DNA from: Candidatus Proelusimicrobium volucris
Lineage (GTDB): Bacteria > Elusimicrobiota > Elusimicrobia > Elusimicrobiales > Elusimicrobiaceae
Assembly (NCBI GenBank): GCA_944324665.1
Contig: CALUXD010000002.1
Coordinates: 352,694 to 416,693, forward strand
Reading direction: 5' to 3'
Length of the DNA stretch: 64,000 nt
Made by a program: the position numbers and the translations under genes. The notes beneath the pieces are model-generated. The model saw only the letters and a list, made by a program, of their open reading frames with translations, had not been told where the DNA came from and ran no database searches. This document shows positions 31,511 through 45,428 of the stretch, one piece after another (the first letter of the stretch is position 1; each line of letters begins with the position of its first letter).

Positions 31511-31969
31511 TTACTTTTTCGTTTTCTTTTTTGATGTTTTCTCCAAGGCCTTAGGAGTGAAAGGGAAAGGATAGAAATCCTTTAATTTCCTGCAGGATAT
31601 CCGCGCCGGTTTACCCGATGATAAATCGGCCGTACATATCGGCATATCGGGTTTTGCAAATTCCGCCATAACCTGCCTGCATGCTCCGCAAGGCGTGCTT
31701 AAAGGGCCTAAATCTTTTTGGCTGAAAACTATTACCAATGCCTTTATTTCCCGCTCGCCTGACACTACCGCGGAGAAGATGGCGTTCCTTTCCGCGCATA
31801 CCGTAAGGCCGTAGGAGGCATTTTCTATATTGGTGCCTCTGTATATTTTTCCGCTTTCGGCCAGGACCGCGGCGCCCACTTTAAATTTTGAGTAAGGAGA
31901 GTAAGAATTATTCATAGCCTGCGCCGCGTTTGATAGTAATTCGTCCAAAAGCTTTTTGGAAAGTTTCAT
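31511..31969 (-). CDS. cdd: Cytidine deaminase (homotetrameric type)
   Basis: CAERNAI and PCGACRQ zinc motifs. ~150 aa. Confidence 0.9.
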   Translation of the reverse strand: MKLSKKLLDELLSNAAQAMNNSYSPYSKFKVGAAVLAESGKIYRGTNIENASYGLTVCAERNAIFSAVVSGEREIKALVIVFSQKDLGPLSTPCGACRQVMAEFAKPDMPICTADLSSGKPARISCRKLKDFYPFPFTPKALEKTSKKKTKK

Positions 31970-32048: not shown

Positions 32049-33110
32049 TTAAATTTTCTGGAGCGTTGCTTTTGCTATTTCTTCCCAAGGAAGTTCCGAA
32101 AATTCGTCCGGCGCCTGCAGTATCGTCGCCTTATCGGATAAAGGCGCCCATACTTTTTGGTTGGCCTTGTCGCTTGCCTTGTATATACAAATTTGTTTTT
32201 TGTCCAGAGCCGCAGCCGCGTGTACGAAAGCCGTATCGGGCGTTATCAGCAAATCGCTGACGGCCAGTATAGCGAAGTTCATAAATAGATTATCTTGGGG
32301 CGTTATAAATAGATTATTTGCTTGTATCCGATTGGCCAGCGCTTCGGTTTTGGCGTGCTGCCCCAGCAAAATTATATTGTATTTATCCAATGCGGCACAA
32401 AGCGCTTTGATTTGAGTTTCCCCCAAGCAGCGGTGTTTGCTTGCCGCAAAAGCGTTTAAGGCGATATTGCCTTTTTTGTGAGGCAGTTTGGAAAAATATT
32501 TTAGAACTTCTTTTTTTAGAGCATTGGGTACAAATAAATCATAAGATATGTTTTGGGGCTTTTCCAAGCGTAAAGTCCTAAACATAGCTTGGTGCCACGC
32601 CGTTATATGGGAGCCGTCCAAATCAAATGTACAGCCTAGATTATAGGATTTAAACTCCCCTCTATTAAACCCGAACGCGAAACGAGGATTTATAAGCCTT
32701 AGCAGGAGCAAGGTGTCAAAAGTGGGGTGTTTATCCATATCTATGTATAAATCTATATTTTGGCGCCTTAGGGCTAAGCCCGTTTTGATTATCGGCCACA
32801 GGCCTTTTTTGCATATTATTATTTGGGATATATTGCGATTGTTTTCTATTATTTGCGCCGAGGCGGGCCCCGCTATTACGGTTATTTCCGCTTTGGGCAG
32901 GGCTTTTTTAATTTCCCTAAAGGCAACGGTGTTGACTATCATATCGCCGAGTTTGTTATCGTTTCTCAAAAATACGATTTTCTTTATGGTCTTTAGCTGG
33001 TGGGGCGTAAATCTGTTTTTGTTTTTTTTGTCAAAAAGGAATTTGCCCGCTTTGGCTTTAAGCCCGCGCAAATACAAATTTTTTCTTCTGTTCCATTCTC
33101 TGAAGGTCAT
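32049..33110 (-). CDS. Glycosyltransferase family 9 (LPS heptosyltransferase-like)
   Basis: GT9 layout: N-terminal ...LRNDNKLGDMIV..., C-terminal ...TPDTAFVHAAAAL. ~350 aa. Confidence 0.8.
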   Translation of the reverse strand: MTFREWNRRKNLYLRGLKAKAGKFLFDKKNKNRFTPHQLKTIKKIVFLRNDNKLGDMIVNTVAFREIKKALPKAEITVIAGPASAQIIENNRNISQIIICKKGLWPIIKTGLALRRQNIDLYIDMDKHPTFDTLLLLRLINPRFAFGFNRGEFKSYNLGCTFDLDGSHITAWHQAMFRTLRLEKPQNISYDLFVPNALKKEVLKYFSKLPHKKGNIALNAFAASKHRCLGETQIKALCAALDKYNIILLGQHAKTEALANRIQANNLFITPQDNLFMNFAILAVSDLLITPDTAFVHAAAALDKKQICIYKASDKANQKVWAPLSDKATILQAPDEFSELPWEEIAKATLQKI

Positions 33111-33121
33111 AATAACCGATA

Positions 33122-34156
33122 TTATATCTTATTATGAAGCAGCTTTCGTATGGAAGCAACAGCCTTTTCAACGGGGAGGGCTTTTATTTCTTTTACTGGA
33201 GCACTGGCCGATATCTCCGATTGAATGGCTATGGCATTATCGGCTTTCAGCGGAGCAAACAGTTTAAAGTTTCTTTCCCATCCCGAATAAAAAGCGAGCA
33301 AGTCTTTGCGATAGGCGCAGGCTATATGTACGGCGGCGCTGTCGACGGAGATAATCATATCGGTGTTTTTTATTAAAGCGAAGAATTCTTCCGTACTCAG
33401 CGGCGGCGTTTGCGAGGGGCGGAGATCCCGTAAAACGGATATGTATTCCGCCGAATCTCTTGTAAAGGGAATAATTAGATTTACTTGATCTTCTTTCCCC
33501 TCAAAAGCGGATTTTAAAATTTCCCGTATTTCTTCCAGGTTAATTTTTCTGTCCGTACCGCTTGGGCTAAGAACGATGTTGGCTTTCTCTTTGTGTAAGA
33601 GTTTTTTCGCCTTCTCCTCACATTCTTTTGGAATTTCAGGCAAAGAATATTCGGGATCGGCGGTTTTGATATAAGGTTTTAACGGAGTCAGTTCCAGGCT
33701 TTTGCTTAGATGTGTCCGCGCCAAATCGGGAATGTAATAATCTATGTTTTGTATGGTGTTTATGTTGTAATATTTTTTCTCTTTCTTCTGGAAAGAGATT
33801 GTATATTTAGGTTTTAAAATGAAATCAAAAATTATATTTCTTGTAGTAAACGATGGAATGTAATCTATGAATATCTGCCATTTCCCGCGGTTGGAGAAAT
33901 AGCCGATAAAATTGTCTTTTATGACTTTGTCTACGAAGGGATTGTTTCTGAAAACAATTTCGTTTCTTTTGACTGCTAAAACCCCCGTTTTAATATTAGG
34001 ATAGGCCTCTTTAAGCTGTTTTAAAACGGCGGTTAATATAACGGCGTCGCCAAGGCCGGTGCCGATAGGACGGATAAGCACGGATTTTATCGAGGAGAAA
34101 TCAAAATCTTCAAATTTCTTTTTTCTGGCGAATATTTTTGAGATTATAGCTTTCAC
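33122..34156 (-). CDS. Glycosyltransferase family 9 (LPS heptosyltransferase-like)
   Basis: IRPIGTGLGDAVILTAVLKQLK N-terminal motif and ISVDSAAVHIACA C-terminal motif typical of GT9. Confidence 0.75.
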   Translation of the reverse strand: MKAIISKIFARKKKFEDFDFSSIKSVLIRPIGTGLGDAVILTAVLKQLKEAYPNIKTGVLAVKRNEIVFRNNPFVDKVIKDNFIGYFSNRGKWQIFIDYIPSFTTRNIIFDFILKPKYTISFQKKEKKYYNINTIQNIDYYIPDLARTHLSKSLELTPLKPYIKTADPEYSLPEIPKECEEKAKKLLHKEKANIVLSPSGTDRKINLEEIREILKSAFEGKEDQVNLIIPFTRDSAEYISVLRDLRPSQTPPLSTEEFFALIKNTDMIISVDSAAVHIACAYRKDLLAFYSGWERNFKLFAPLKADNAIAIQSEISASAPVKEIKALPVEKAVASIRKLLHNKI

Positions 34157-34317
34157 TTTTTTTTCTCCTCAGGTAATATTTGGGATATTTTAGGAAATAG
34201 CAGATGTCGTCAAACAGCAAGGCGCTGTCGAACAATAGTGTTTGCCTAAAATCCAATATGGTTCTTGGGCCGTGAATATTTCTTGGGTAATTATTGTATT
34301 TTATTCTGTTCGTTTTA

Positions 34318-34418
34318 AACCTGTTTTTGTTTTTTTTGTCAAAAAGGAATTTGCCCATTTTAGCTTTAAGCCCGCGCAGGTAGAGGTTTTTTCTTCTGTT
34401 GCATTCTCTGAAGGACAT
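34318..34418 (-). pseudogene. 5' remnant of a GT9 gene, duplicating the first ~34 codons of the 32049-33110 gene
   Basis: ~101 bp align to 33010-33110 with 11 mismatches by hand alignment (MSFRECNRRKNLYLRGLKAKMGKFLFDKKNKNRF vs MTFREWNRRKNLYLRGLKAKAGKFLFDKKNKNRF). Similarity stops after that, and the ORF runs into the next gene. Confidence 0.6.
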
Positions 34419-34430
34419 AAAGTTAATATC

Positions 34431-35423
34431 TTATATTTTTTTAATCATTTTGTTGTAATAGTTTCTGTATTGTTTTTTTATGTAATGAAAAAATATCTTA
34501 GCAAATATATTCTTACGATATTTATAATATAGGGCCATTTTCGGGGTTATAATATTATTATCCGTTAAATAACGGATAAGCTTTTCCGGAGGTAGTTTTT
34601 CTTTCGCTTTTTTAGAAACAAATTTAGTATGATTTGTTATTGCGTTTCCCACGCTTTGAAAGAAGTAGACTTTACGCAAATAATCGTTTGTTTCGGAAAA
34701 ATGTTTATATACTTTTAGCCAATTGGTTAAATTCTCAATAGAAATACTGGTGCTCTCATTAAAACTGTCTTGTCCTTTATGCAATCTGTAAAAGATACAA
34801 TTCCCATCAACAAATATTATTGCCTTGCCTACTTTCATAGTTTCTATCATCATAGGCCAATCAAAAATCTTGCCAAACTTTTTTTGAAGCAGTGAGATAT
34901 CCGCATTTTTATAGAACTCTGATTTGATAATGCTGCCACTCCAAGAAGGTGACGGTGACGTCCAAAAACCTAGGGCAAAATCGGCCTGATTGTCTATAAG
35001 ATAATGTTTGTCGTTAAGACTTCTAGGCATAGTATATTCTTTTGGTGGGATATTGGTATAAAAACAGAAAGATTTAGCACTTATAAAAGATATATCCCGG
35101 TATTTAGTTAAAGCTTTTAAGGCGAGGCCCAAATATTGCGGGTGGATTAAATCGTCATCGTGCAATACCATAGTATAGGGCTTAGACATCAAACTTTGCG
35201 CCGTTATAAAATTGGCGAAAGGTTTATCGGGCTGAGTGCGTATATACTTTACTTGCGGATAGTTTTTGATAAATTCTTCTGTTTTGTCGTCGGTAGAGTT
35301 ATCCAGCAGAAAAATATCGCCTAGGCTTTTTTGCGCCAAAACGCTTTCAAGCGCCTGTCTGCACATTGCGGGGCGGTTTCTGGTAAAAATAAAAATTTCT
35401 ATGTCTTTGGAAGTAAAAGCCAT
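34431..35423 (-). CDS. Glycosyltransferase family 2
   Basis: GT-A motifs: IFTRNRPAMCRQALESVLAQ, LLDNSTDD, LHDDDLI. Confidence 0.8.
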   Translation of the reverse strand: MAFTSKDIEIFIFTRNRPAMCRQALESVLAQKSLGDIFLLDNSTDDKTEEFIKNYPQVKYIRTQPDKPFANFITAQSLMSKPYTMVLHDDDLIHPQYLGLALKALTKYRDISFISAKSFCFYTNIPPKEYTMPRSLNDKHYLIDNQADFALGFWTSPSPSWSGSIIKSEFYKNADISLLQKKFGKIFDWPMMIETMKVGKAIIFVDGNCIFYRLHKGQDSFNESTSISIENLTNWLKVYKHFSETNDYLRKVYFFQSVGNAITNHTKFVSKKAKEKLPPEKLIRYLTDNNIITPKMALYYKYRKNIFAKIFFHYIKKQYRNYYNKMIKKI

Positions 35424-36275
35424 TTAAATCTCCGTTGTTTTGGCGAGATATTCGTAAAATCTTTTTATGCCGTCCTCGTATGAGGTAAACTTGAAATCGG
35501 GCAGTTCCGCTTTCAGCAGGGCGTTATCGCCCGTATATTCATTGGCCAGGCCTTCTTTGGCGGATATAATCTCGCTTTTGTAAGAAGATATTTTGTTTAT
35601 TGTTTGCGCGATTTCCATAAGCGATATGCCTTTGTCGGGCGTTATGTTGATAAACCTCGCTTTTGGCTTTTTTTCAATGAAGCGCAGTACTATTTCGCAT
35701 AAATCTTCTACGGGGATATAGTCAAATACGACATTTTGGCGCATAGTTATCGGTTTATGCGCCAAGTTGCATTTTGAGGCGTGTGTTATAAATCTGGAGT
35801 CAAACTCATACGGCCCGTAAACGCCAAACAACCTTAAATTAAGTACATTGGGGTATTTTTGTATTTCTTGGCTTATTTTGTATTTGGCGCGGCCGTATAA
35901 ATCTTTGGGGATAACTTCCCCCCATTGGCTTTCCTTGATTTTTTTTATCGGGCGGCTTTTGTCGTATTCCGCGCCCGAGCCGAAGGTTATTATATCGCGC
36001 CCGTCGGCCGCTTTGACGAAGTTTTCAAATATGGCCAAGTTCTTTCCTTCAATGTCCGAGGGTATGTTTTTAGGGTCGCTTATTCCGTAAAAGCCGGAAA
36101 GTATGTATAAATCGGGCTGATAGGTATCGGCCAAAGCCTTTACGGTTTTAGCGTTGGTAAAGTCGTAGTCTTTGCTTTTTGGCGCGATTAGTTTAAAGTT
36201 TTTATCTTCCAAGAAGGGTTTTAAATTGCGCCCCACAAATCCGCCTGCGCCGGTCATTAATATTGTTTTACGCAT
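35424..36275 (-). CDS. NAD(P)-dependent sugar epimerase/reductase (extended SDR)
   Basis: Rossmann motif TGAGGFVGRNL and catalytic YGRAK. Confidence 0.8.
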   Translation of the reverse strand: MRKTILMTGAGGFVGRNLKPFLEDKNFKLIAPKSKDYDFTNAKTVKALADTYQPDLYILSGFYGISDPKNIPSDIEGKNLAIFENFVKAADGRDIITFGSGAEYDKSRPIKKIKESQWGEVIPKDLYGRAKYKISQEIQKYPNVLNLRLFGVYGPYEFDSRFITHASKCNLAHKPITMRQNVVFDYIPVEDLCEIVLRFIEKKPKARFINITPDKGISLMEIAQTINKISSYKSEIISAKEGLANEYTGDNALLKAELPDFKFTSYEDGIKRFYEYLAKTTEI

Positions 36276-36278
36276 AAA

Positions 36279-37250
36279 TCATCTCTTTTTAGGCCATATT
36301 TTGGTTTTTATGAAATAGAACAGCCTTATGTTTATCCCTTTGTCGGTTCTATAAAACCATATTATGGGATTTTTGCTCAATATGTATTTAAATACCGCCA
36401 ATATAAGGAGCAGTTTCTTTTTAAAACCAACCGCCATAAAAATATCGCATAAATTTTGTATTTTGAAAGGAGGCCAGCCCATAAAATCATTCATAGAACC
36501 GAAAAAATTCTTTCCCAAAACCAACACATCAAAACATTGTTCCCTTAATTTTTTATCTTTTATCATTCTGTAAGAGTCTATATATCCCCATAGCAAACTG
36601 AATGTATTTGTCCTATAAAACAAGTCTTTATTTTCTTTTTTGACTTGATGGGATTTTTCCTCGCTGGATTGTAATACAAGCCTGCCTTGCGGAATGAAGA
36701 TTTTTCCTTCCTCATTTATTATTTTGCAGGAAAGAGCGTGAAACGGGAATAAATTATAAGCCATCATATACGCATTTCTTATAACGGTATCGGTTATGTG
36801 CTTAGTATTGTATATGGCGCTGGGCAGGAAGCACATTTCGTTTAAAAGATATGGTATCTCCTCGCTTCTGAAGTTTGGGGTATGGCTTGTCATTATTATG
36901 TCATAGTCCAGCTCTATGGCTTTTTCCACTTCGTTCCAAGCGGACCAGTTATAATTGTCGTCGTCGCAAAGTATCCACAGATATTGTTTTGAAGCGGTTT
37001 CCATGGCTTTGATTATATTTCCGCTTAAGCCCGCGTTGTATTTGTTCTTTATGTGTTTCAGGTTTCCGTATTCTTTGCGATAGGCTTTAACTATTGCGGC
37101 GGTGCCGTCGGTGGAGTTATTATCCAAAACGGTAATGTCAAAATCTTTTACGGGCGAATTATCGGCCAGCAGCTGTTTTAGGGTAGCGTCCAAAAAATTG
37201 GCCCTGTTATAGGTTATTACTATTATTTGCAGTTTGTTTTTTATAGACAT
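36279..37250 (-). CDS. Glycosyltransferase family 2
   Basis: VITYNRANFLDATLKQLL, VLDNNSTDGT, and a CDDDNY DxD-type motif. Confidence 0.8.
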   Translation of the reverse strand: MSIKNKLQIIVITYNRANFLDATLKQLLADNSPVKDFDITVLDNNSTDGTAAIVKAYRKEYGNLKHIKNKYNAGLSGNIIKAMETASKQYLWILCDDDNYNWSAWNEVEKAIELDYDIIMTSHTPNFRSEEIPYLLNEMCFLPSAIYNTKHITDTVIRNAYMMAYNLFPFHALSCKIINEEGKIFIPQGRLVLQSSEEKSHQVKKENKDLFYRTNTFSLLWGYIDSYRMIKDKKLREQCFDVLVLGKNFFGSMNDFMGWPPFKIQNLCDIFMAVGFKKKLLLILAVFKYILSKNPIIWFYRTDKGINIRLFYFIKTKIWPKKR

Positions 37251-37251
37251 T

Positions 37252-38148
37252 TCAGTTATCCGTATAGGGTATATTATTGCTTTGCAAAATTATTTTTACC
37301 GCATCGGGCAAAGGCGTAAAAGAATTAAATCCGACTTCATTTAACAGTTTGTAGTTATCGCCCAGATAAAGGCTTGGCTGGGTTGAGGGCTCGTCGGATA
37401 AGGAAAGCAGATCCTCTTTGTCCGCCGGTTTGAAAAACAACTTGGCGTAATCGGCCAAAGAAACCGCCTCCCCCGTACATATGTTAAGCGCGCCCTGCGC
37501 CTTGGAAAATAAGGCTTTTACAGTCGCCGCCGCGCAGTCGGGCGCAAAGACAAAATCCCTCTTAAGCCGGGAATGCCTTAAATTTAATACTGTTCCCCCC
37601 TTTAAGGAATTTATTATCTGCGCCGTCAAACGGGGAAGAACCTCGTCTTTGCCGAATATTTGGAAAGGCCTTATCCACAAAAATTCAATCCCGTTAGCCT
37701 TAGAGTAATCAAGCGCCTGCCGATAAAGGCGGGTTTTGCATTCCTCATAGGCGTTGGCGGCCTGCAAAGGAGAATCTTCCGCTAAAGGATTATCGGAGGC
37801 GGCGTATTCAAACATACTGCCGAAATATACCGCCCGTTTCCCCCCGTTGGCGTGGAAAGCTTTAAGCAAATTCATTCCAGCTTGCAGAAATTTAAAATTT
37901 AACGGGGAATCGGCATAATCGCCCGATACTTTCCAAGCCAGATTGATAAGATAATTCGGCTTTACCCCGCCGAGAATATTTTTGACGAAAGTTTCGTCAA
38001 ACAGGTCGCCTTGTATGTATTCTATGCCGGGCAGTTTGTTTTTGGGCGGCAGAATATCCAAAGCCCAAATTTTCGGTCCGCATGCCGAAAGACGGGGCAA
38101 TAGTTCCTTGCCCAGCAATCCGCTCGCGCCCGTCAGCAAAATATTCAT
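37252..38148 (-). CDS. NAD(P)-dependent sugar epimerase/reductase (extended SDR)
   Basis: LLTGASGLLGKEL Rossmann motif and YEECK catalytic pair. The stop/start overlaps the upstream ThDP enzyme gene. Confidence 0.8.
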   Translation of the reverse strand: MNILLTGASGLLGKELLPRLSACGPKIWALDILPPKNKLPGIEYIQGDLFDETFVKNILGGVKPNYLINLAWKVSGDYADSPLNFKFLQAGMNLLKAFHANGGKRAVYFGSMFEYAASDNPLAEDSPLQAANAYEECKTRLYRQALDYSKANGIEFLWIRPFQIFGKDEVLPRLTAQIINSLKGGTVLNLRHSRLKRDFVFAPDCAAATVKALFSKAQGALNICTGEAVSLADYAKLFFKPADKEDLLSLSDEPSTQPSLYLGDNYKLLNEVGFNSFTPLPDAVKIILQSNNIPYTDN

Positions 38149-39902
38149 TTGTAAATATTTTCCTCCATTTCTTCTTTGGGCAGGAACGGGAACATATCTT
38201 CCAAAGTAGGCGACACCATACTGCCGTCGGGCAGTTTTTTGGAGGATAGTTTAGGCGTAAAGATATAATCGTCCTTTAAAACTATCTCGCACAAAACGGG
38301 CCCTTTAAGGCTCAGCGCTTTCTCTATTTGCTTTTTTAAGTTCTTGGGCGAGCTTATTTGAGCGGTTCTCAGGCCGAACGCCTGCGCCAGTTTGATAAAA
38401 TCCGGCATTTTTACTCCGCTCTCTTGCCCGCAGGCGGTGTACCTTCCGAAGAAATTCCTCTGCGTCTGTTTTATGGATATGTAGCCGTCATTGTTAAACA
38501 GGAATATCTTTATCGGCAGATTATAGGTTTTTACCGTTTGCAGTTCCTGCAGGTTCATCATTATGCTGCCGTCGCCCTCAAGGCAGATTGTCTCTTCCTT
38601 CCCGGCCGCTATGCACGCGCCTATCGCGGCGGGCAGGCCGTAACCCATTGAGGCGTTGCCCGAGTTCAAAAACATTCTCTTCCCCTCTTTTGACGCCCCC
38701 GCCTGATATAAAGCCAAACACGCCGTCGCGTTTGAGGCTACCGTCGTAGTAAGCCCCGAGCATTGTGTTATCAGTCTGGCACATTCGTAGGGATTGAGTT
38801 TTTCTTTCAAATCTTTAAATTCGCTTAAGGGTGTGTATTTCTTTACACGCGCGCGGCACCAATTAAGCCATTTCTCGGCTTTTAAATCTTTGGCTTTGGA
38901 AAGCAACGCCTTTATAAAATCTTTTACATCGGCTTTGACGGCGATATCGGGCTTTACCGTTGGTTTTTTAAGTTCCGCCTCGTCAATATCCACGATAATT
39001 TTTACCGCTTTTTTAGCGAAGTTTTCCCAATTATAGCTGGCTTGGCGGATATTGTTCCTTGTGCCCAAGAACAAAACGCAGTCGGCGTTTTGCAGGGCGA
39101 AGTTCCCCGCTCTCTGCCCTACGGTTCCTATTCTCCCGGCAAACAGGGGATTATCTTCCGAGATTAAATCAAACCCGTTAAAGGTTGTTGCAATCGGGAT
39201 ATTGAGCTTCTGGGCGAGTTTTTTAAAATCGTTTTGCGCGCCCGCCAGCCTTATGCCGTGCCCCGCGACAATAAGCGGCGCTTTGGCTTTTTTTAAGGCT
39301 TTTATTATTTGTTCCGTCTTTAAATTGTATTTGGCTTTTGCCGGTATTTTAAAGCCCTTTAGTTTCTTCTCGTCTATCAAGGCGGCTTGAATGTTTATCG
39401 GTATATCAAGCCAAACGGGGCCGGGACGCCCGTTCTTAGCCAGATAGATGGCTTTTTCCAGGTGGAATTTTATATCCTCGGCTTTGGTTATCGATACGGC
39501 GTATTTGGTAAAAGGTTTTACGGCCGCTATAATATCGGCCTCCTGGTCGCCCAGCTGCCTAAGGGGTATATCGGGGCACGAGGCTTTGCAGGTGCTGAAT
39601 TTTACCTGCCCCGAAAAATATATCACCGGTACGCTGTCCGTCCACTGTCCGAAAAGGCCGTTTAGGCAGTTAAGCCCGCCCGGGCCCGTTGTTACGCATA
39701 CGGCGGCCAAATCCTGGTTGAGGCGGGCGTATCCCTCGGCTTCTATGGCGAGGGCCTGCTCATTGTGGGCGCAGTAATATTTCAGCTTGGAGTTGCCGAA
39801 AGAATCGTTTAAGTGCATCGCCCCACCGCCCGATATCATAAAGATGTCCTTTACTCCATGGGCGGATATATATTTGGCTATATAATCCGATACTTTTATC
39901 AT
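38145..39902 (-). CDS. Thiamine-diphosphate-dependent enzyme, acetolactate-synthase-large-subunit-like (YerE-like candidate)
   Basis: Three-domain ALS-like length (585 aa). N-terminal HNEQALAIEAEGYAR (catalytic Glu) and the ThDP motif GDGSIMMNLQEL...NNDGY. Confidence 0.85.
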   Translation of the reverse strand: MIKVSDYIAKYISAHGVKDIFMISGGGAMHLNDSFGNSKLKYYCAHNEQALAIEAEGYARLNQDLAAVCVTTGPGGLNCLNGLFGQWTDSVPVIYFSGQVKFSTCKASCPDIPLRQLGDQEADIIAAVKPFTKYAVSITKAEDIKFHLEKAIYLAKNGRPGPVWLDIPINIQAALIDEKKLKGFKIPAKAKYNLKTEQIIKALKKAKAPLIVAGHGIRLAGAQNDFKKLAQKLNIPIATTFNGFDLISEDNPLFAGRIGTVGQRAGNFALQNADCVLFLGTRNNIRQASYNWENFAKKAVKIIVDIDEAELKKPTVKPDIAVKADVKDFIKALLSKAKDLKAEKWLNWCRARVKKYTPLSEFKDLKEKLNPYECARLITQCSGLTTTVASNATACLALYQAGASKEGKRMFLNSGNASMGYGLPAAIGACIAAGKEETICLEGDGSIMMNLQELQTVKTYNLPIKIFLFNNDGYISIKQTQRNFFGRYTACGQESGVKMPDFIKLAQAFGLRTAQISSPKNLKKQIEKALSLKGPVLCEIVLKDDYIFTPKLSSKKLPDGSMVSPTLEDMFPFLPKEEMEENIYK

Positions 39903-39907
39903 TTAAA

Positions 39908-40729
39908 TCAATATCCGGTTTCGCCGCCGGCTTCCTCAATCAATTTTTTGTAACGGGCTTCCAGCATATCAATCCTTTTTGCGTCCTCTTTATGTATACA
40001 GCCGTAGAAATCGCGCTTGTTTTTAAGCCACATAAGTTCAAAGCCGACGGCTTTCAAAATGCCTTGAGGCGCTTTTTCGTCGGCCAGAGAGGCTTGCGCG
40101 CCAAAGATTATTTTCCTTGTTTCAAAGCGGTCAAGGGTATTAGGCGGAAGGTTTTTAAAAAACGGCAGAGAATGGGCCGATACACCGCCGCCGATACAAC
40201 ATTCAAGGCCGCGCGCTTTGCATTTGGTCAAAATGTCTTTGGCTATTTCAAAAATTCTGTCGGAGTTGATGTCTTCCCTAGTCAAGCCGAGCGATCCGCA
40301 CATATCAACCCTGCCCAAAACTATGCCATGTATGCCTTTTATGGCTTCGCAGTCGAGCATGGCCTGAAGGTTTTTATGGCCGGTTTCAGTTTCTATATTG
40401 ACCAGAAATTTAACGTCGTCGCCGTATTCCTTGGGGAAGGCCAGCTTCGCGGAATTGACGAATTTGCTTAAAGCGTAAGGCGTTTCTATCATCGGGCCGA
40501 CTATCCTTGATACCCCTATGATTTTAGCGTCGTACATATCTTTAAGGGCTTCGCAGCCGCCTACTTTTATCGTAAGCTCCAACCCCGCCGTAGTTACCAC
40601 TTCTTTCAGGCGCATGGCTTCTTCCAGGCGGGTGCCTTCGGCTTCAAATTCCGCCTTTACGCCTTCAACATGATGATTATGTTTTAAATCCGTCAGGATG
40701 TCAACCATCTTTTTTTCAAGATAATTCAT
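39908..40729 (-). CDS. HpcH/HpaI aldolase / citrate-lyase-beta-like TIM-barrel protein
   Basis: LVNIETETGHKNL ... GIVLGRVDMCGSLGL resembles the IET / G-x-x-D-L-s-x-S-x-G pattern of that family. The assignment is tentative. Confidence 0.55.
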   Translation of the reverse strand: MNYLEKKMVDILTDLKHNHHVEGVKAEFEAEGTRLEEAMRLKEVVTTAGLELTIKVGGCEALKDMYDAKIIGVSRIVGPMIETPYALSKFVNSAKLAFPKEYGDDVKFLVNIETETGHKNLQAMLDCEAIKGIHGIVLGRVDMCGSLGLTREDINSDRIFEIAKDILTKCKARGLECCIGGGVSAHSLPFFKNLPPNTLDRFETRKIIFGAQASLADEKAPQGILKAVGFELMWLKNKRDFYGCIHKEDAKRIDMLEARYKKLIEEAGGETGY

Positions 40730-40730
40730 T

Positions 40731-42092
40731 TTATTTCTCCTGTTTTGTCTTTCCGGTTACAAATTGTTTAATCGCGGCTATTGTTTTGTCTATATCGTCC
40801 GCTCCGAGCCCGGGCCATACGCCCACCCAAAAACTGCCGCGCATAACTTCTTCGGTATTGGGGAGCAGGGCGTATTCTTTATCCGTCAAATCGCGCGAGT
40901 TCAACACTATGGAATTTTTAATTCTCAAAGGGATATCGTCGTCGGTGAAGGCGGGCTGCCTCAAGATATTGCCGGCGAACACCTGCCTTGTGCCTATGCC
41001 TTGGCTTTCAAGGTATTTGCAGAGTTCTATTTTGTCAAAGCCCGCGTCTTTGCGTACGGTCAGGATAAAGCCGAACCAGCTCGGCTCGGCCTGCGCCTGC
41101 CAGGCGGGCAGAATAAAGTATTTGTCAAAGGGTTTAAGCGCCATAAAAAGGCGGGTAAAATTTTCCTTGCGCTTGGCGATGAAGCCGTCAAGTTTTTTAA
41201 GCTGGGCCAAAGCGCAGGCGGCCTGCCAGTCGGTTATTTTAAGGTTATAGCCCAAGTGGGAATAGGTATATTTATGGTCATAGCCGAAGGGCAGTTTGCC
41301 AAGCTGCATATTAAAGCGGTTTTTGCATGTATTGTCTTTGCCAGGCGGGCACCAGCAGTCGCGGCCCCAATCCCTAAAGGACATCAAAATCCTGTACAAA
41401 ACGGGGTCATCGGTGACGACGGCGCCGCCCTCGCCCATCGTTATATGGTGGGCGGGATAGAAGCTGAAGGTGCCTATATGCCCGAAAGTACCCGTATGTT
41501 TGCCGCCGAATTTGGCGCCCAAGGCGTCGCAGTTGTCCTCAATGAGCCAAAGGCCTTTGTCTTGGCAGATTTGTTTTATCTTTTCCAGATTGAAAGGATT
41601 GCCCAAAGTATGCGCGACGAAAACCGCCTTGGTTTTTGGTGAAAGAGCTTGCTCGATTTCGCTTTCCAAAATATTGTGGGTGTTTATATCCACGTCAACA
41701 AACACGGGTATAAGCCCGTTTTGTATTATCGGCGCTACGGTAGTCGGGAAACCCGCCGCCACGGTGATAACCTCGTCGCCCCTTTTAAGGCGTCTGTCGC
41801 CCAGTTTGTGGGAAGTGAGCGCGCTCAAAGCCAGCAGATTGGCGCTTGAGCCCGAATTTACGCTTAAAGCGTATTTTGAACCCAAATAAGCCGCAAATTG
41901 CTTTTCAAATTGTTCATTAAAACGCCCCGTCGTCAGCCACATATCCAAAGTGGCGTCGAGCATATTGTCCAGCTCTTCCGTGCCTAGCACCTTACCCGAT
42001 GCGGGGATATAAGTCCTTTGCTGTTTTTTTTGCTGGGCTCTGTAATATTTGCGCCCTAAAGTTTTAATCAATTTCCTTGTTAAGTTTTCCAT
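40731..42092 (-). CDS. rfbH: CDP-6-deoxy-L-threo-D-glycero-4-hexulose 3-dehydrase (E1; RfbH/DdhC)
   Basis: DegT-fold protein with His where the Schiff-base Lys would be (FYPAHHITMGEGG). By my count it has an exact C-X57-C-X1-C-X7-C cysteine pattern (DNC...DCWCPPGKDNTC). Start taken at MENLTRK (the ATG at 42092). Confidence 0.85.
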   Translation of the reverse strand: MENLTRKLIKTLGRKYYRAQQKKQQRTYIPASGKVLGTEELDNMLDATLDMWLTTGRFNEQFEKQFAAYLGSKYALSVNSGSSANLLALSALTSHKLGDRRLKRGDEVITVAAGFPTTVAPIIQNGLIPVFVDVDINTHNILESEIEQALSPKTKAVFVAHTLGNPFNLEKIKQICQDKGLWLIEDNCDALGAKFGGKHTGTFGHIGTFSFYPAHHITMGEGGAVVTDDPVLYRILMSFRDWGRDCWCPPGKDNTCKNRFNMQLGKLPFGYDHKYTYSHLGYNLKITDWQAACALAQLKKLDGFIAKRKENFTRLFMALKPFDKYFILPAWQAQAEPSWFGFILTVRKDAGFDKIELCKYLESQGIGTRQVFAGNILRQPAFTDDDIPLRIKNSIVLNSRDLTDKEYALLPNTEEVMRGSFWVGVWPGLGADDIDKTIAAIKQFVTGKTKQEK

Positions 42093-43158
42093 AATTCTCT
42101 CTATATTCAGATATCTGTTTAAGCGTGAAGGCTTTGATGTCCGCGCCTTCGTAGAAATTTTTGTACCACAGCGCCGTTTCCTTAACGGCTTTGTCAAAGT
42201 CGTAAACGGGGCGCCAGTTAAGAAGTTTAAAAGCCTTCTCTATATCAAGGTGAAGGAGTTTCGCCTCGTGCAGTTTGGCGCAGGGCTCAACTCTGTAAGA
42301 GCCGCCCCCCCACGTCTTTAAAAACAGTTTTACCAAATCCTCAACGGTGCGGACGTCGCTTGGGTTTGGGCCGAAGTTCCAGCCCTGCGCCAGAGAAGGA
42401 TTATCCCACATCTTTTTGCCCAAGAGCATATAGCCAAAAAGCGGCTCCAGCACATGCTGCCACGGCCTTGTGGCAAGCGGGTTTCTCAGCACTATTTGCT
42501 CGCCTTTGCTTAAGGCGCGGGCGCAGTCAGGTACGATTCTATCCAAGGCGTAATCTCCGCCGCCTATTACATTACCGGCCCTGCAGCTTGCCAAGGCAGT
42601 ATTGTGGCTTTTGCCGTACTCTTTAATATTGAAAAACGAATTTCTGTAACAGGAGGTAAGCAGTTCCGCCATGCCTTTTGACGCGCTGTAAGGGTCATAG
42701 CCGCCCATGGGCGAAGTTTCTTTATAAGGAATATCCGTTTCCTTATTTTCGTAGCATTTGTCGCTTGTTATGTTTATCAGAACTTTTACGCTGGGCGTTT
42801 GGCGTACGGCCTCAAAAAGATTCGCCGTGCCGATAACATTGGTTTGTATCGTTTCCACCGGCTCTTTGTAGGAAAGCCTTACCAGAGGCTGCGCCGCCAA
42901 GTGGAATACTATATCTGGCTTAAAAGAAAGTACTTCTTTTTTAAGTTTATCGGCGTCCAAAATATTGCCTATTACGCTTTGCGTCGCTTTTTCAAGCCCG
43001 AGCAGTTCGTATAAAGAAGGATTGGTATTGGGCGCCAAAGCGTAGCCTTTAACTTCCGCGCCCATATCTGTAAGCACGGCGCTGAGCCAAGAGCCTTTAA
43101 AGCCAGTATGCCCCGTCAGAAATATCTTTTTGCCTTTATAAAATTGTTCCAATGTCAT
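42064..43158 (-). CDS. rfbG: CDP-glucose 4,6-dehydratase
   Basis: FLTGHTGFKGSWLS N-terminus, the Y-x-x-x-K pair YSASK, and ~360 aa. It sits between rfbF and rfbH. Confidence 0.9.
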   Translation of the reverse strand: MTLEQFYKGKKIFLTGHTGFKGSWLSAVLTDMGAEVKGYALAPNTNPSLYELLGLEKATQSVIGNILDADKLKKEVLSFKPDIVFHLAAQPLVRLSYKEPVETIQTNVIGTANLFEAVRQTPSVKVLINITSDKCYENKETDIPYKETSPMGGYDPYSASKGMAELLTSCYRNSFFNIKEYGKSHNTALASCRAGNVIGGGDYALDRIVPDCARALSKGEQIVLRNPLATRPWQHVLEPLFGYMLLGKKMWDNPSLAQGWNFGPNPSDVRTVEDLVKLFLKTWGGGSYRVEPCAKLHEAKLLHLDIEKAFKLLNWRPVYDFDKAVKETALWYKNFYEGADIKAFTLKQISEYRENYGKLNKEID

Positions 43159-43173
43159 ATAATTTTTCGGCCT

Positions 43174-43950
43174 TTACCATTTTTTCCAAGGGGCTTTGCC
43201 CTCCGCCCATAATTGCTCAAGCTGGTTTTTGTCGCGCAGAGCGTCCATCGGCTTCCAAAAGCCTTCGTGCTTATAGGCGGCTATTTGGCCGTCGGCGGAC
43301 AATTCCTCCATAGGCTCCTTTTCCCATACGCAGGCGTCGTCGCCTTCCTTTATGTATTTAAGAACTTCCGGCTCCAATACGAAAAAACCCGCATTTATCC
43401 AGCCGCCGTCGCCTTTTGGCTTTTCCTTAAAGGACTTGATTATGCCGTTCATATCTATATCCATCGCGCCAAAACGCCCCTCGGGCTGTACGGTAGTAAC
43501 GGTGGCCAGTTTGCCCGTCTTTTTGTGGAAGGCTATTAAATCTTTGATATTTACGTCGCTTACCCCGTCGCCGTAGGTTAAAAGGAAAGTTTCGTCCCCG
43601 ATATATTTTTCCGCCTGTTTTATGCGTCCGCCGGTCATAGTGTTTAGTCCGGTGTCCAAAATGGTAACTTTCCACGGCTCGGCTTTATGGTTCAGGGTTT
43701 GTATGGTATTTGCCGCCAAATCTATTTGCAAATCGGAATTGTGCAGAAAATAATCGGCGAAATATTCCTTTATTATATATCCTTTATAGCCCGCCAATAT
43801 TATAAATTCGTTTATACCGTAATGGGAGTATATCTTCATTATGTGCCACAGTATCGGCTTGCCGCCTATTTCTATCATCGGTTTAGGGCGAAGGTGGGAT
43901 TCTTCCGCTATACGCGTACCCATCCCGCCCGCCAATATAACAGCTTTCAT
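43174..43950 (-). CDS. rfbF: Glucose-1-phosphate cytidylyltransferase
   Basis: MKAVILAGGMGTRI...RPKPMIEIGGKPILWHIM. GGAGG lies 7 nt upstream of the ATG at 43950. Confidence 0.9.
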   Translation of the reverse strand: MKAVILAGGMGTRIAEESHLRPKPMIEIGGKPILWHIMKIYSHYGINEFIILAGYKGYIIKEYFADYFLHNSDLQIDLAANTIQTLNHKAEPWKVTILDTGLNTMTGGRIKQAEKYIGDETFLLTYGDGVSDVNIKDLIAFHKKTGKLATVTTVQPEGRFGAMDIDMNGIIKSFKEKPKGDGGWINAGFFVLEPEVLKYIKEGDDACVWEKEPMEELSADGQIAAYKHEGFWKPMDALRDKNQLEQLWAEGKAPWKKW

Positions 43951-44153
43951 AAAATATGCCTCCAAATGGTTTTATATATTATACATAATTAAGTTGTGGC
44001 GAAATATATAAGTAAAAAGGATTATCAGAAAGGTTATCTTATCTTTATTTGCGATATTCTTTCTATGACGGAACTATCCAAACAGTTTGCCTTGGCTTTC
44101 AATTTTAATGCTACAATACAAAATAAGTATATGTACAGATGAGGTTTTGTTTT

Positions 44154-45428
44154 ATGGGGAGATTGCTTCGCGCCGTTTTGTTGGCGTGTTTTTTAACTTT
44201 CGGTTTTGTTGTTTCAGCTTTTTCGGGAACCGATAAAAATCAAACGGGGAAAGAGAGCGTTTTTTATGAACAGGTACTCTTGGAGGAAGCCATCTCTGCG
44301 CAAAAGGTTTCAGCCAGGCATGAGAGGCGGATTTCTCAGAATAAATCTTTTAGCGAGTACGGTGATTTCCTTTCCTTTTATTCCGAAGCCAAAAAAATGG
44401 CGGAAGACAAATTGGGGCTGCAATTCGGCATTGACGTTTCTTTTATGGCTCAGCGTGCCGCGCCGAACGGAAAGAACACCGCAATACAAGCTATTTATTA
44501 CCCCTATGCCACGTGGAATTTATTTAAGAGCGAGCGCTGGGGTTCCGGCCAAATAGATTTTAACTACACTCTTACGCGTTATTGGGGCGGAGAAGCTGCG
44601 GCTTTAAACAATAGGGTTAATGTAGTTGCCGGTATAAACGACGGCTTATCGGACGGAGATACTTTTTCCCAAGCTACCTATACACACACCATGCCCGGCA
44701 AATTAAGCTGGCTTAGTTTGACGGTGGGGCAATATCCTCTATACAATTTTGACGGGACGACTTATGATTCAAACCCTCAAACGGCGCTTATAAACTATGC
44801 TCTTGCGCAGAACGCTAGCGCGAGTTACCCTGCGGCTAGTTTGGGCGCTTACCTGCAAGCCGCTTTAAACGAGAAAATAACCTTAAGCGCAGGCTATCAG
44901 GACGCCACAAATATCAGCGGCAGTCAAATAAGGTTTAAGGACGCCTTTCCCGGCGAATATACGGCGTTCGCTTCTTTAAGTTATGCGGACAATTCCGCCC
45001 AATATTCGGCGATGGCGTATTATCAGCCGTCGGTGGAAGATCAGGAGGGTTACAGCTGGGGCTGGTCTTTAAACGCGGAGCGAGACCTCGGCAAAAAATG
45101 GAATATATTTGGGCGCGCAAACGGCTCCAGCGATAATATAACTTCTATAAAACAATCCTATGTTTTGGGGATTTCTTTCCTGAATCCGCTTGAAAGAAAT
45201 CCGTTGGACGTCATTACCATAGCCGCGGCTTATAACCGCTTGAGCGAAGATGCATTGCTCCTGCCTTATGTCCGCTCGGCCGAAACGGTTATAGAAGCAC
45301 AATGGGTTTGGGGAATAAGCAAATATTTTACTCTTACGCCCGATATACAGCTTTATCCGCGCGCGGGTTTAAGTTCTGAGCAAGAGTGGGTTAGCGTAGC
45401 CTCGCTTAGGACAACTTTTATGTTCTAA
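44154..45428 (+). CDS. Outer-membrane beta-barrel porin, possibly OprB-type carbohydrate porin
   Basis: Signal peptide, alternating beta-strand pattern, and a C-terminal aromatic residue (...TTFMF). GAGG SD before the ATG at 44154 and TGCTACAAT at 44109-44117. Confidence 0.55.
   Translation: MGRLLRAVLLACFLTFGFVVSAFSGTDKNQTGKESVFYEQVLLEEAISAQKVSARHERRISQNKSFSEYGDFLSFYSEAKKMAEDKLGLQFGIDVSFMAQRAAPNGKNTAIQAIYYPYATWNLFKSERWGSGQIDFNYTLTRYWGGEAAALNNRVNVVAGINDGLSDGDTFSQATYTHTMPGKLSWLSLTVGQYPLYNFDGTTYDSNPQTALINYALAQNASASYPAASLGAYLQAALNEKITLSAGYQDATNISGSQIRFKDAFPGEYTAFASLSYADNSAQYSAMAYYQPSVEDQEGYSWGWSLNAERDLGKKWNIFGRANGSSDNITSIKQSYVLGISFLNPLERNPLDVITIAAAYNRLSEDALLLPYVRSAETVIEAQWVWGISKYFTLTPDIQLYPRAGLSSEQEWVSVASLRTTFMF

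Follow-up and report, generated by a model that had tools for sequence, protein, structure and literature searches.

Which sugar is built by an operon in which the genes for a cytidine diphosphate (CDP)-linked 3,6-dideoxyhexose are accompanied by an aldolase-like protein, a thiamine diphosphate (ThDP)-dependent enzyme and short-chain dehydrogenases/reductases (SDRs)? The question is raised by a locus of Candidatus Proelusimicrobium volucris (Elusimicrobiota; Elusimicrobiaceae) within the stretch of 64,000 nucleotides analysed here, hereafter the window (assembly GCA_944324665.1, contig CALUXD010000002.1, positions 352,694 to 416,693). A preliminary description of this DNA pointed to yersiniose A and placed the aldolase-like gene outside the known pathways. 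The latter view does not hold, since erwiniose, caryophyllose and gastriose are all made by this logic of aldolase, ThDP enzyme and reductase. In the unifying scheme for acyl-branched sugars, which has been proposed and partly proved, an aldolase provides a hydroxylated 2-oxoacid for a YerE-like ThDP enzyme acting on CDP-4-keto-3,6-dideoxyglucose, and a reductase follows (Steitz et al., 2022; PMC9306805). The expectation of a product different from yersiniose appears reasonable to us. The operon probably makes a CDP-3,6-dideoxyhexose with a carbon side chain at C4, for use by the GT2 and GT9 glycosyltransferases of a cell-envelope glycan of the lipopolysaccharide (LPS) type, and this side chain is most likely longer than two carbons, being formed through the combined action of an aldolase and the thiamine enzyme.

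The genes for the sugar acceptor are identified by equivalog models. The products of rfbF, rfbG and rfbH all score above the respective cut-offs (Table 1), in agreement with the core claim of the preliminary description, and the ATG at 43950 with which it ended the locus coincides with the start of the RfbF model. In RfbH the cysteine pattern C188-X57-C246-X-C248-X7-C256 is intact, and histidine replaces the pyridoxal phosphate-binding lysine in FYPAHHITMGEGG (PAHH). We take the C-X57-C-X-C-X7-C iron–sulfur motif and the Lys-to-His exchange to be the hallmarks of the 3-dehydrase component E1 (RfbH/DdhC/AscC).

The ThDP enzyme contains all three TPP_enzyme domains (N, M and C; Pfam), a canonical GDG-X24-NN motif at residues 443–471 and, as cofactor-activating glutamate, Glu48 within HNEQ. 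Against the acetohydroxyacid synthase (AHAS) model TIGR00118 it reaches 347 bits, where the cut-off is 538; the true AHAS enzymes of other Elusimicrobiota exceed 800 bits, while the class of the window gene falls at 330–400 bits. Its best match in the PDB is JanthE (8RPH; 391 bits, 37% identity over the full length). PpYerE (5AHK) matches at 232 bits and 32% identity and is by score no closer than AHAS, for which 218–235 bits (218 for plant AHAS) and 29–30% identity were obtained. A maximum-likelihood tree of 69 sequences, rooted on AHAS and assessed by SH-aLRT support, separates the sugar-linked ThDP clades from AHAS with a support of 100 and resolves them as a PpYerE clade beside a pair formed by the JanthE clade and a clade linked to HpcH-like genes (99–100, with 99 for the HpcH-linked clade itself); the tree derives from a quick search, has long branches and was built from sequences that exclude YerE, ErwE and MMAR_2332. 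Scores and tree together mark the window enzyme as a predicted YerE-like carboligase, a grouping carried by the JanthE score and the tree and not by the PpYerE score, and the preliminary description, which had weighed YerE-type enzymes against genuine AHAS, was right to favour the former. Membership of the JanthE family proper was considered and rejected, given an identity of 35–40%, a separate clade and JanthE loci devoid of an HpcH-like gene. A phosphonate reading of the TIM barrel and ThDP pair as phosphoenolpyruvate (PEP) mutase and phosphonopyruvate decarboxylase was likewise discarded: the PEP_mutase family gave no match, and all three domains are present in the ThDP enzyme. The window gene is the sole full-length AHAS-like ThDP gene of the genome, which measures 1.5 Mb and is 99.7% complete. 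As a separate observation, the same genome encodes no ketol-acid reductoisomerase (KARI) and is therefore without branched-chain amino-acid synthesis; the shikimate pathway is apparently also absent, there being no dehydroquinate-synthase-like gene.

The protein encoded between rfbH and the ThDP gene is a divergent member of the superfamily of pyruvate/PEP-binding barrels. It matches PF03328 at 39 bits (gathering score 25) over residues 48–177 only. Its AlphaFold2 model (pLDDT 94) shows a TIM barrel followed by a long helix at the C-terminus, for which Foldseek ranks the HpaI/HpcH aldolases first (TM-score 0.55–0.60, 12–16% identity), followed by SbnG, pyruvate kinase barrels and malyl-CoA lyase. 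The predicted metal ligands, Glu113 (NIET) and Asp142 (GRVD), align with those of YfaU and HpaI and are nearly invariant in the family; the divalent-metal ligands of HpaI are Glu149 and Asp175. Sequence and profile searches align the protein solely over the region bearing both ligands (β5–β6). An invariant Lys55 (IKxGG) lies at the strand end that apparently matches Arg70 of HpaI, the catalytic residue polarising the pyruvate carbonyl, in a part where the alignment is weak, and the family has an invariant set of its own, comprising Glu31, Lys55, Gly58, Pro79, Glu82 and Ser146. With 5641 cluster representatives at E ≤ 0.001 the family is large; the best 120 of these 5641 are all at least 66% identical and bear names of Elusimicrobiota, Margulisbacteria, Gastranaerophilales and other groups, and in a library clustered at 50% identity 287 representatives were counted at E ≤ 1e-30. 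Across phyla the identity is 65–70%. To judge from these features, the chemistry of the HpcH-like protein is most likely that of a pyruvate aldolase.

The genomic association of these genes was followed in 80 loci from named genomes that were fetched with the HpcH-like protein, onto which the window proteins were mapped and in which all open reading frames were clustered; the counts are lower bounds, since many of the contigs are short. The ThDP gene is present in 69 of the 80 loci, the RmlD-like reductase termed SDR2 in 58 and rfbF, rfbG and rfbH in 44–51, so the arrangement is a cassette and not a chance neighbourhood. The recurrent order is rfbF-rfbG-rfbH-SDR2-HpcH-[insert]-ThDP, where the insert is a variable set of genes discussed below. 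The closest loci fetched are those of Elusimicrobiales metagenome-assembled genomes (MAGs), and the cassette is also carried by Melainabacteria, Margulisbacteria, spirochaetes, Rickettsiales, some Firmicutes, Actinomycetota and archaeal MAGs. Among the cultured strains with a member of the family are Effusibacillus consociatus CCUG 53762 (L051), Pseudanabaena cinerea FACHB-1277 (L194) and Helicobacter zhangjianzhongii XJK30-2 (L220). High-GC cassettes occur in Actinomycetota MAGs and in one Halobacteriales MAG; the latter (L305) has HpcH-like, AroB-like, FabG-type, ThDP and rfbF genes, and a second archaeal-labelled contig ('uncultured archaeon', L209) carries the cassette or at least the HpcH-like gene. 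A scan with a GC-rich family member retrieved a Sericytochromatia protein and its relatives, and a GC-rich codon pattern for FEAEG(A/T)R retrieved cassettes of actinobacterial MAGs, with no Mycobacterium or Rhodopseudomonas among the matches listed. In many loci the cassette is followed by genes for a GtrB-like GT2 and a GtrA-like protein, which suggests transfer to a lipid carrier. A literature search on a dehydroquinate synthase, aldolase and thiamine enzyme combined with rfbH or CDP-glucose genes found nothing relevant. Apart from these cassettes, two Pseudomonas spp. (L100:8202-11779 and L101:8203-11764) have two tandem ThDP genes after rfbF-rfbG-rfbH, one PpYerE-like and the other JanthE-like, an arrangement pointing to two branching steps, either successive or alternative.

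The preliminary description had taken the SDR directly downstream of the ThDP gene (298 residues; SDR1) as the pathway partner. This gene is found in only six of the 80 related loci, whereas SDR2 (35424-36275), present in 58 and mostly lying between rfbH and the HpcH-like gene, is the conserved partner in the cassette. The best PDB match of SDR2 is a dTDP-4-dehydrorhamnose reductase. By analogy, SDR2 is most likely a YerF-like reductase of the side-chain ketone, because a reduction at C4 before branching would make no sense.

From these assignments we infer the following pathway. RfbF and RfbG would form CDP-4-keto-6-deoxyglucose, from which RfbH would remove the 3-hydroxyl with electrons presumably drawn from a general ferredoxin or flavodoxin. 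The HpcH-like enzyme, as a divergent class II (metal-dependent) pyruvate aldolase, would condense pyruvate with an aldehyde to give a 4-hydroxy-2-oxoacid; the ThDP enzyme would decarboxylate this acid and join the resulting acyl anion to the CDP-sugar at its C4 ketone. An SDR, most likely SDR2, would then reduce the new side-chain ketone, and the finished sugar would pass to the GT2 and GT9 transferases of the LPS-type envelope glycan. The aldolase is placed before the ThDP enzyme by analogy, because ErwE accepts 4-hydroxy-2-oxopentanoate and refuses pyruvate (PMC9306805).

Several points weigh against this proposal. The HpcH-like protein is remote from the characterised aldolases, its Pfam match covers half of the protein and the invariant Lys55 apparently occupies the site that corresponds to catalytic Arg70 in HpaI, so its aldolase chemistry stays putative. 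The E3 reductase is missing, at a genome completeness of 99.7%. Among characterised ThDP enzymes the closest is JanthE, which takes pyruvate as well as longer donors and whose own loci have no HpcH-like gene; a two-carbon branch therefore keeps some probability. YerE, ErwE, MMAR_2331, MMAR_2332 and MyGE were compared by description, not by sequence alignment, and in every carrier the cassette is known from its genes alone.

The presence of a second reductase in the window admits an addition to the branched-sugar pathway, not a replacement of it, namely that two sugars arise from one intermediate. SDR1 would then be a C4 ketoreductase resembling the abequose or paratose synthases that diverts part of the CDP-4-keto-3,6-dideoxyglucose to an ordinary 3,6-dideoxyhexose, SDR2 would serve the branched sugar and each SDR would be followed by a GT2 of its own. 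We regard this as a real, if tentative, possibility. The nearest solved relative of SDR1 is the GDP-6-deoxy-D-lyxo-4-hexulose reductase Rmd (2pk3), a reductase of nucleotide-linked 4-keto-6-deoxyhexoses; its rarity among the cassette loci is in keeping with a separate task, and SDR1 adjoins an RmlC-like epimerase gene, like the AscE/AscF pair of ascarylose, in three of its four loci from beyond the genus of the window. The window order ThDP-SDR1-GT2-SDR2-GT2 is what such a division would produce, although it fits either role of SDR1. On the other side, the ATGA overlap of SDR1 with the ThDP stop codon suggests joint action, the SDR1 family is narrow, small and unnamed, no family model giving SDR1 a specific name, and the substrates of extended SDRs are not assignable from sequence alone. 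SDR1 may thus serve a second, unbranched dideoxyhexose or a further tailoring step.

A different extension of the branched-sugar proposal arises from the insert between the HpcH-like and ThDP genes (L032:8813-10539, L009:8791-10558 and 40 other loci). It is absent, as in the window, from 23 loci; in 15 it consists of a HAD phosphatase gene, sometimes with an Acyl_transf_3 gene, and in 27 of a FabG-type SDR and an AroB-related enzyme (TIGR04425, 395 bits; a model named 'putative sugar phosphate phospholyase (cyclizing)'). The forms are intermixed, with at least 21 switches on a 68-row ThDP tree, and the identity of the HpcH-like proteins between forms (69–70%, up to 94%) is the same as within them; all forms therefore probably share the aldolase-like and ThDP steps, the insert genes being interchangeable accessories. 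AroB-like enzymes begin by eliminating phosphate. A phosphate-bearing chain, for instance from erythrose 4-phosphate, is suggested because a phosphatase alternates with an AroB-like enzyme beside an unchanging aldolase. The HpcH-like protein might then be a dedicated aldolase for pyruvate and a sugar-phosphate aldehyde, yielding a 2-keto-3-deoxy acid phosphate similar to 3-deoxy-D-arabino-heptulosonate 7-phosphate (DAHP) that the ThDP clade grafts onto the CDP-sugar; we consider this rather unlikely. The corresponding role of the inserts as alternative treatments of the terminal phosphate, which would be hydrolysed, eliminated to leave a methyl end or lost on ring closure, is put forward with equal reserve. 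An AroB-like (dehydroquinate-synthase-like) gene is present neither in the window's cluster nor in the rest of the genome, and the cluster has no HAD phosphatase gene, unlinked phosphatases elsewhere in the genome not having been searched for. There is a slim chance that the chain end of the window product is unlike that made by the other forms. If the phosphate-bearing chain were real, a long polyhydroxy side chain, possibly still phosphorylated, would be displayed on the surface and made with an E3-independent E1.

A yersiniose-type route, in which the ThDP enzyme adds a two-carbon acetyl branch from pyruvate and an SDR reduces it, is a little less likely still. The HpcH-like protein would in that case extend the acetyl branch later, supply pyruvate through cleavage or decarboxylation of another acid or serve another sugar. 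That the group was founded on YerE and that JanthE, the nearest characterised relative, accepts pyruvate would fit such a route, as would the fact that the aldolase activity of the HpcH-like protein is a prediction. Yet in 69 of the 80 loci, which span phyla, the HpcH-like gene is tied to this particular ThDP clade, and JanthE-type loci do not have it, a pattern that fits a dedicated donor supplier, and ErwE, the sole tested ThDP enzyme with an adjacent aldolase, refuses pyruvate.

The acceptor itself can be questioned on account of E3 (AscD/DdhD/RfbI, a Fer2-FNR protein), the usual electron donor of E1. The preliminary description had invoked the established ascarylose/abequose pathway; rfbF, rfbG and rfbH bear this out, whereas E3, whose absence it left unremarked, has no counterpart, since no NAD_binding_1 (FNR-type) domain was found in the whole genome. 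The domain is equally missing from five of 20 other carrier genomes and does not occur within 8 kb of the cassette in the related loci. Without E3 the 3-deoxygenation by RfbH could remain incomplete, so that the acceptor would be CDP-4-keto-6-deoxyglucose or an amino derivative and the product something other than a 3,6-dideoxy sugar. We hold this to be improbable: RfbH lies far above its equivalog cut-off, a full iron–sulfur motif with the Lys-to-His exchange would be pointless without electron transfer, and ferredoxins abound in the anaerobic hosts. In vitro, other reductases can stand in for E3. In these anaerobes its place is presumably taken by a general low-potential electron carrier.

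A metabolic role for the ThDP enzyme, as an acetolactate synthase or something similar placed in the sugar operon by chance, is scarcely credible and refuted for practical purposes, since the enzyme, although AHAS models are its top NCBIfam matches, stays under every AHAS cut-off, the genome has no KARI, the tree parts it from AHAS with a support of 100 and its link to rfbFGH extends across phyla.

Table 1. Genes of the proposed branched-sugar operon; coordinates are positions in the window
Feature	Coordinates	Strand	Basis
rfbF, glucose-1-phosphate cytidylyltransferase	43174..43950	-	TIGR02623 equivalog, 425 bits vs cut-off 300
rfbG, CDP-glucose 4,6-dehydratase	42064..43158	-	TIGR02622 equivalog, 465 bits vs cut-off 278
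rfbH/E1, CDP-6-deoxy-L-threo-D-glycero-4-hexulose 3-dehydrase	40731..42092	-	NF011936 equivalog, 679 vs 423 bits
HpcH/HpaI-superfamily TIM-barrel protein, putative class II pyruvate aldolase, 273 aa	39908..40729	-	Pfam PF03328
YerE/JanthE-like ThDP-dependent carboligase (predicted), 585 aa	38145..39902	-	Three TPP_enzyme domains
SDR1, extended SDR, Rmd-like nucleotide-sugar ketoreductase, role uncertain, 298 aa	37252..38148	-	Pfam Epimerase
GT2a, GT2 glycosyltransferase	36279..37250	-	PF00535, 78 bits
SDR2, RmlD-like SDR, 283 aa	35424..36275	-	Pfam Epimerase + RmlD_sub_bind
GT2b, GT2 glycosyltransferase	34431..35423	-	PF00535, 51 bits
GT9-family glycosyltransferase	33122..34156	-	PF01075, 28 bits
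GT9-family glycosyltransferase	32049..33110	-	PF01075, 51 bits

The genes in Table 1 form one tightly packed operon on the minus strand from 43950 to 32049, as follows from their junctions, which range from a 4-nt overlap to a 5-nt gap. The rfbF, rfbG, rfbH, HpcH-like, ThDP and SDR genes lie where the preliminary description had placed them, and its account of them is correct. Promoter and terminator scans revealed no strong terminator inside the operon and were otherwise uninformative. Upstream and divergent lies a gene for an OprB-family carbohydrate-selective porin (44139-45428), whose model is matched by the C-terminal 160 residues only; directly downstream on the same strand, a cytidine deaminase gene (31511-31969) may be linked to CMP/cytidine recycling. 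The GC content falls to 0.37 at 34001-36000, in the block of GT2, SDR2 and GT2 genes, compared with 0.46–0.49 from rfbF to the ThDP gene and about 0.42 in the window, which fits a mosaic origin of the transferase end. In two genomes of the same genus (L001 and L002) the core genes of the operon are 93–100% identical to those of the window, yet GT2a is only 44–45% identical; in L001, GT2b is 54% and the second GT9 gene (GT9b) 62% identical. The glycosyltransferase alleles look as if they had been swapped in the manner of serotypes within a conserved sugar operon.

Caryophyllose, erwiniose and other long-branched sugars are rare components of bacterial envelopes with immunological activity, and the ThDP enzymes of their pathways are sought as biocatalysts for chiral tertiary alcohols. 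The present locus indicates that gut Elusimicrobia carry such a pathway, and the cassette is widespread and highly conserved. By pairing a sister clade of JanthE with a specific candidate donor-making enzyme, it offers a handle on the physiological donor. It also provides a natural test case for an E1 3-dehydrase that works in the absence of its usual partner E3. Pathways of this type have already been published, and the value of the locus lies in its scope and its enzymes, not in a new principle; what is notable is the wide distribution, the distinct ThDP clade, the divergent aldolase-like enzyme and the absence of E3.

Among the characterised systems, yersiniose A of Yersinia pseudotuberculosis (DdhA–D, YerE and YerF; compare PpYerE, 5AHK) has the same acceptor genes, rfbF, rfbG and rfbH corresponding to ddhA, ddhB and ddhC, and shares with the proposed route a ThDP-dependent branching at C4 followed by ketoreduction. 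It needs no aldolase and possesses DdhD (E3), whereas the window has an aldolase-like gene and no E3. JanthE from Janthinobacterium sp. HH01 (8RPH, 8RPI and 8RPJ) is a YerE-like enzyme of broad donor range whose physiological substrates are unknown according to the Müller group (PMC12188165; PMC12247030). It shares the C-terminal tail FxPKL...DGxxVSPxLED with the window enzyme, and in its loci, as here, the ThDP gene follows rfbF-rfbG-rfbH. It differs in belonging to a sister clade, in having a CDG motif in place of GDG and in lacking both an HpcH-like gene and SDR2 in its loci. The erwiniose cluster of Pectobacterium atrosepticum (ErwI/ErwJ/ErwE/ErwF) presents the same order of aldolase, ThDP enzyme and reductase; ErwI, however, is a BphI/DmpG-type aldolase that is paired with an acetaldehyde dehydrogenase and differs in fold family from the HpcH-like protein. 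The latter has the TIM-barrel fold and the Glu/Asp metal ligands in common with the class II pyruvate aldolases HpaI/HpcH, YfaU and GarL, from which it is set apart by its low identity and structural similarity and by the apparent Lys55 in place of Arg70 of HpaI. Many related cassettes differ from that of the window in having AroB-like and FabG-type genes.

The closest parallel in parts list is the caryophyllose module of the lipooligosaccharide (LOS) locus of Mycobacterium marinum (MMAR_2331, MMAR_2332 and a reductase), together with its Rhodopseudomonas palustris counterpart (PMC9306805). MMAR_2331 belongs to the aldolase/citrate-lyase family, and its deletion abolishes the incorporation of caryophyllose (PMC9306805; PMC5706390). 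CDP-3,6-dideoxyhexose genes, an HpcH/HpaI-family protein, a YerE-like ThDP enzyme, an NAD(P)H-dependent reductase and glycosyltransferases are common to that module and the window, a likeness drawn from the parts list and not from sequence comparison; the hosts here are gut Elusimicrobia instead of mycobacteria, and E3 is absent. The window operon is accordingly an uncharacterised case of the published pathway type that joins an aldolase, a ThDP enzyme and a reductase, with a parts list closest to that of caryophyllose.

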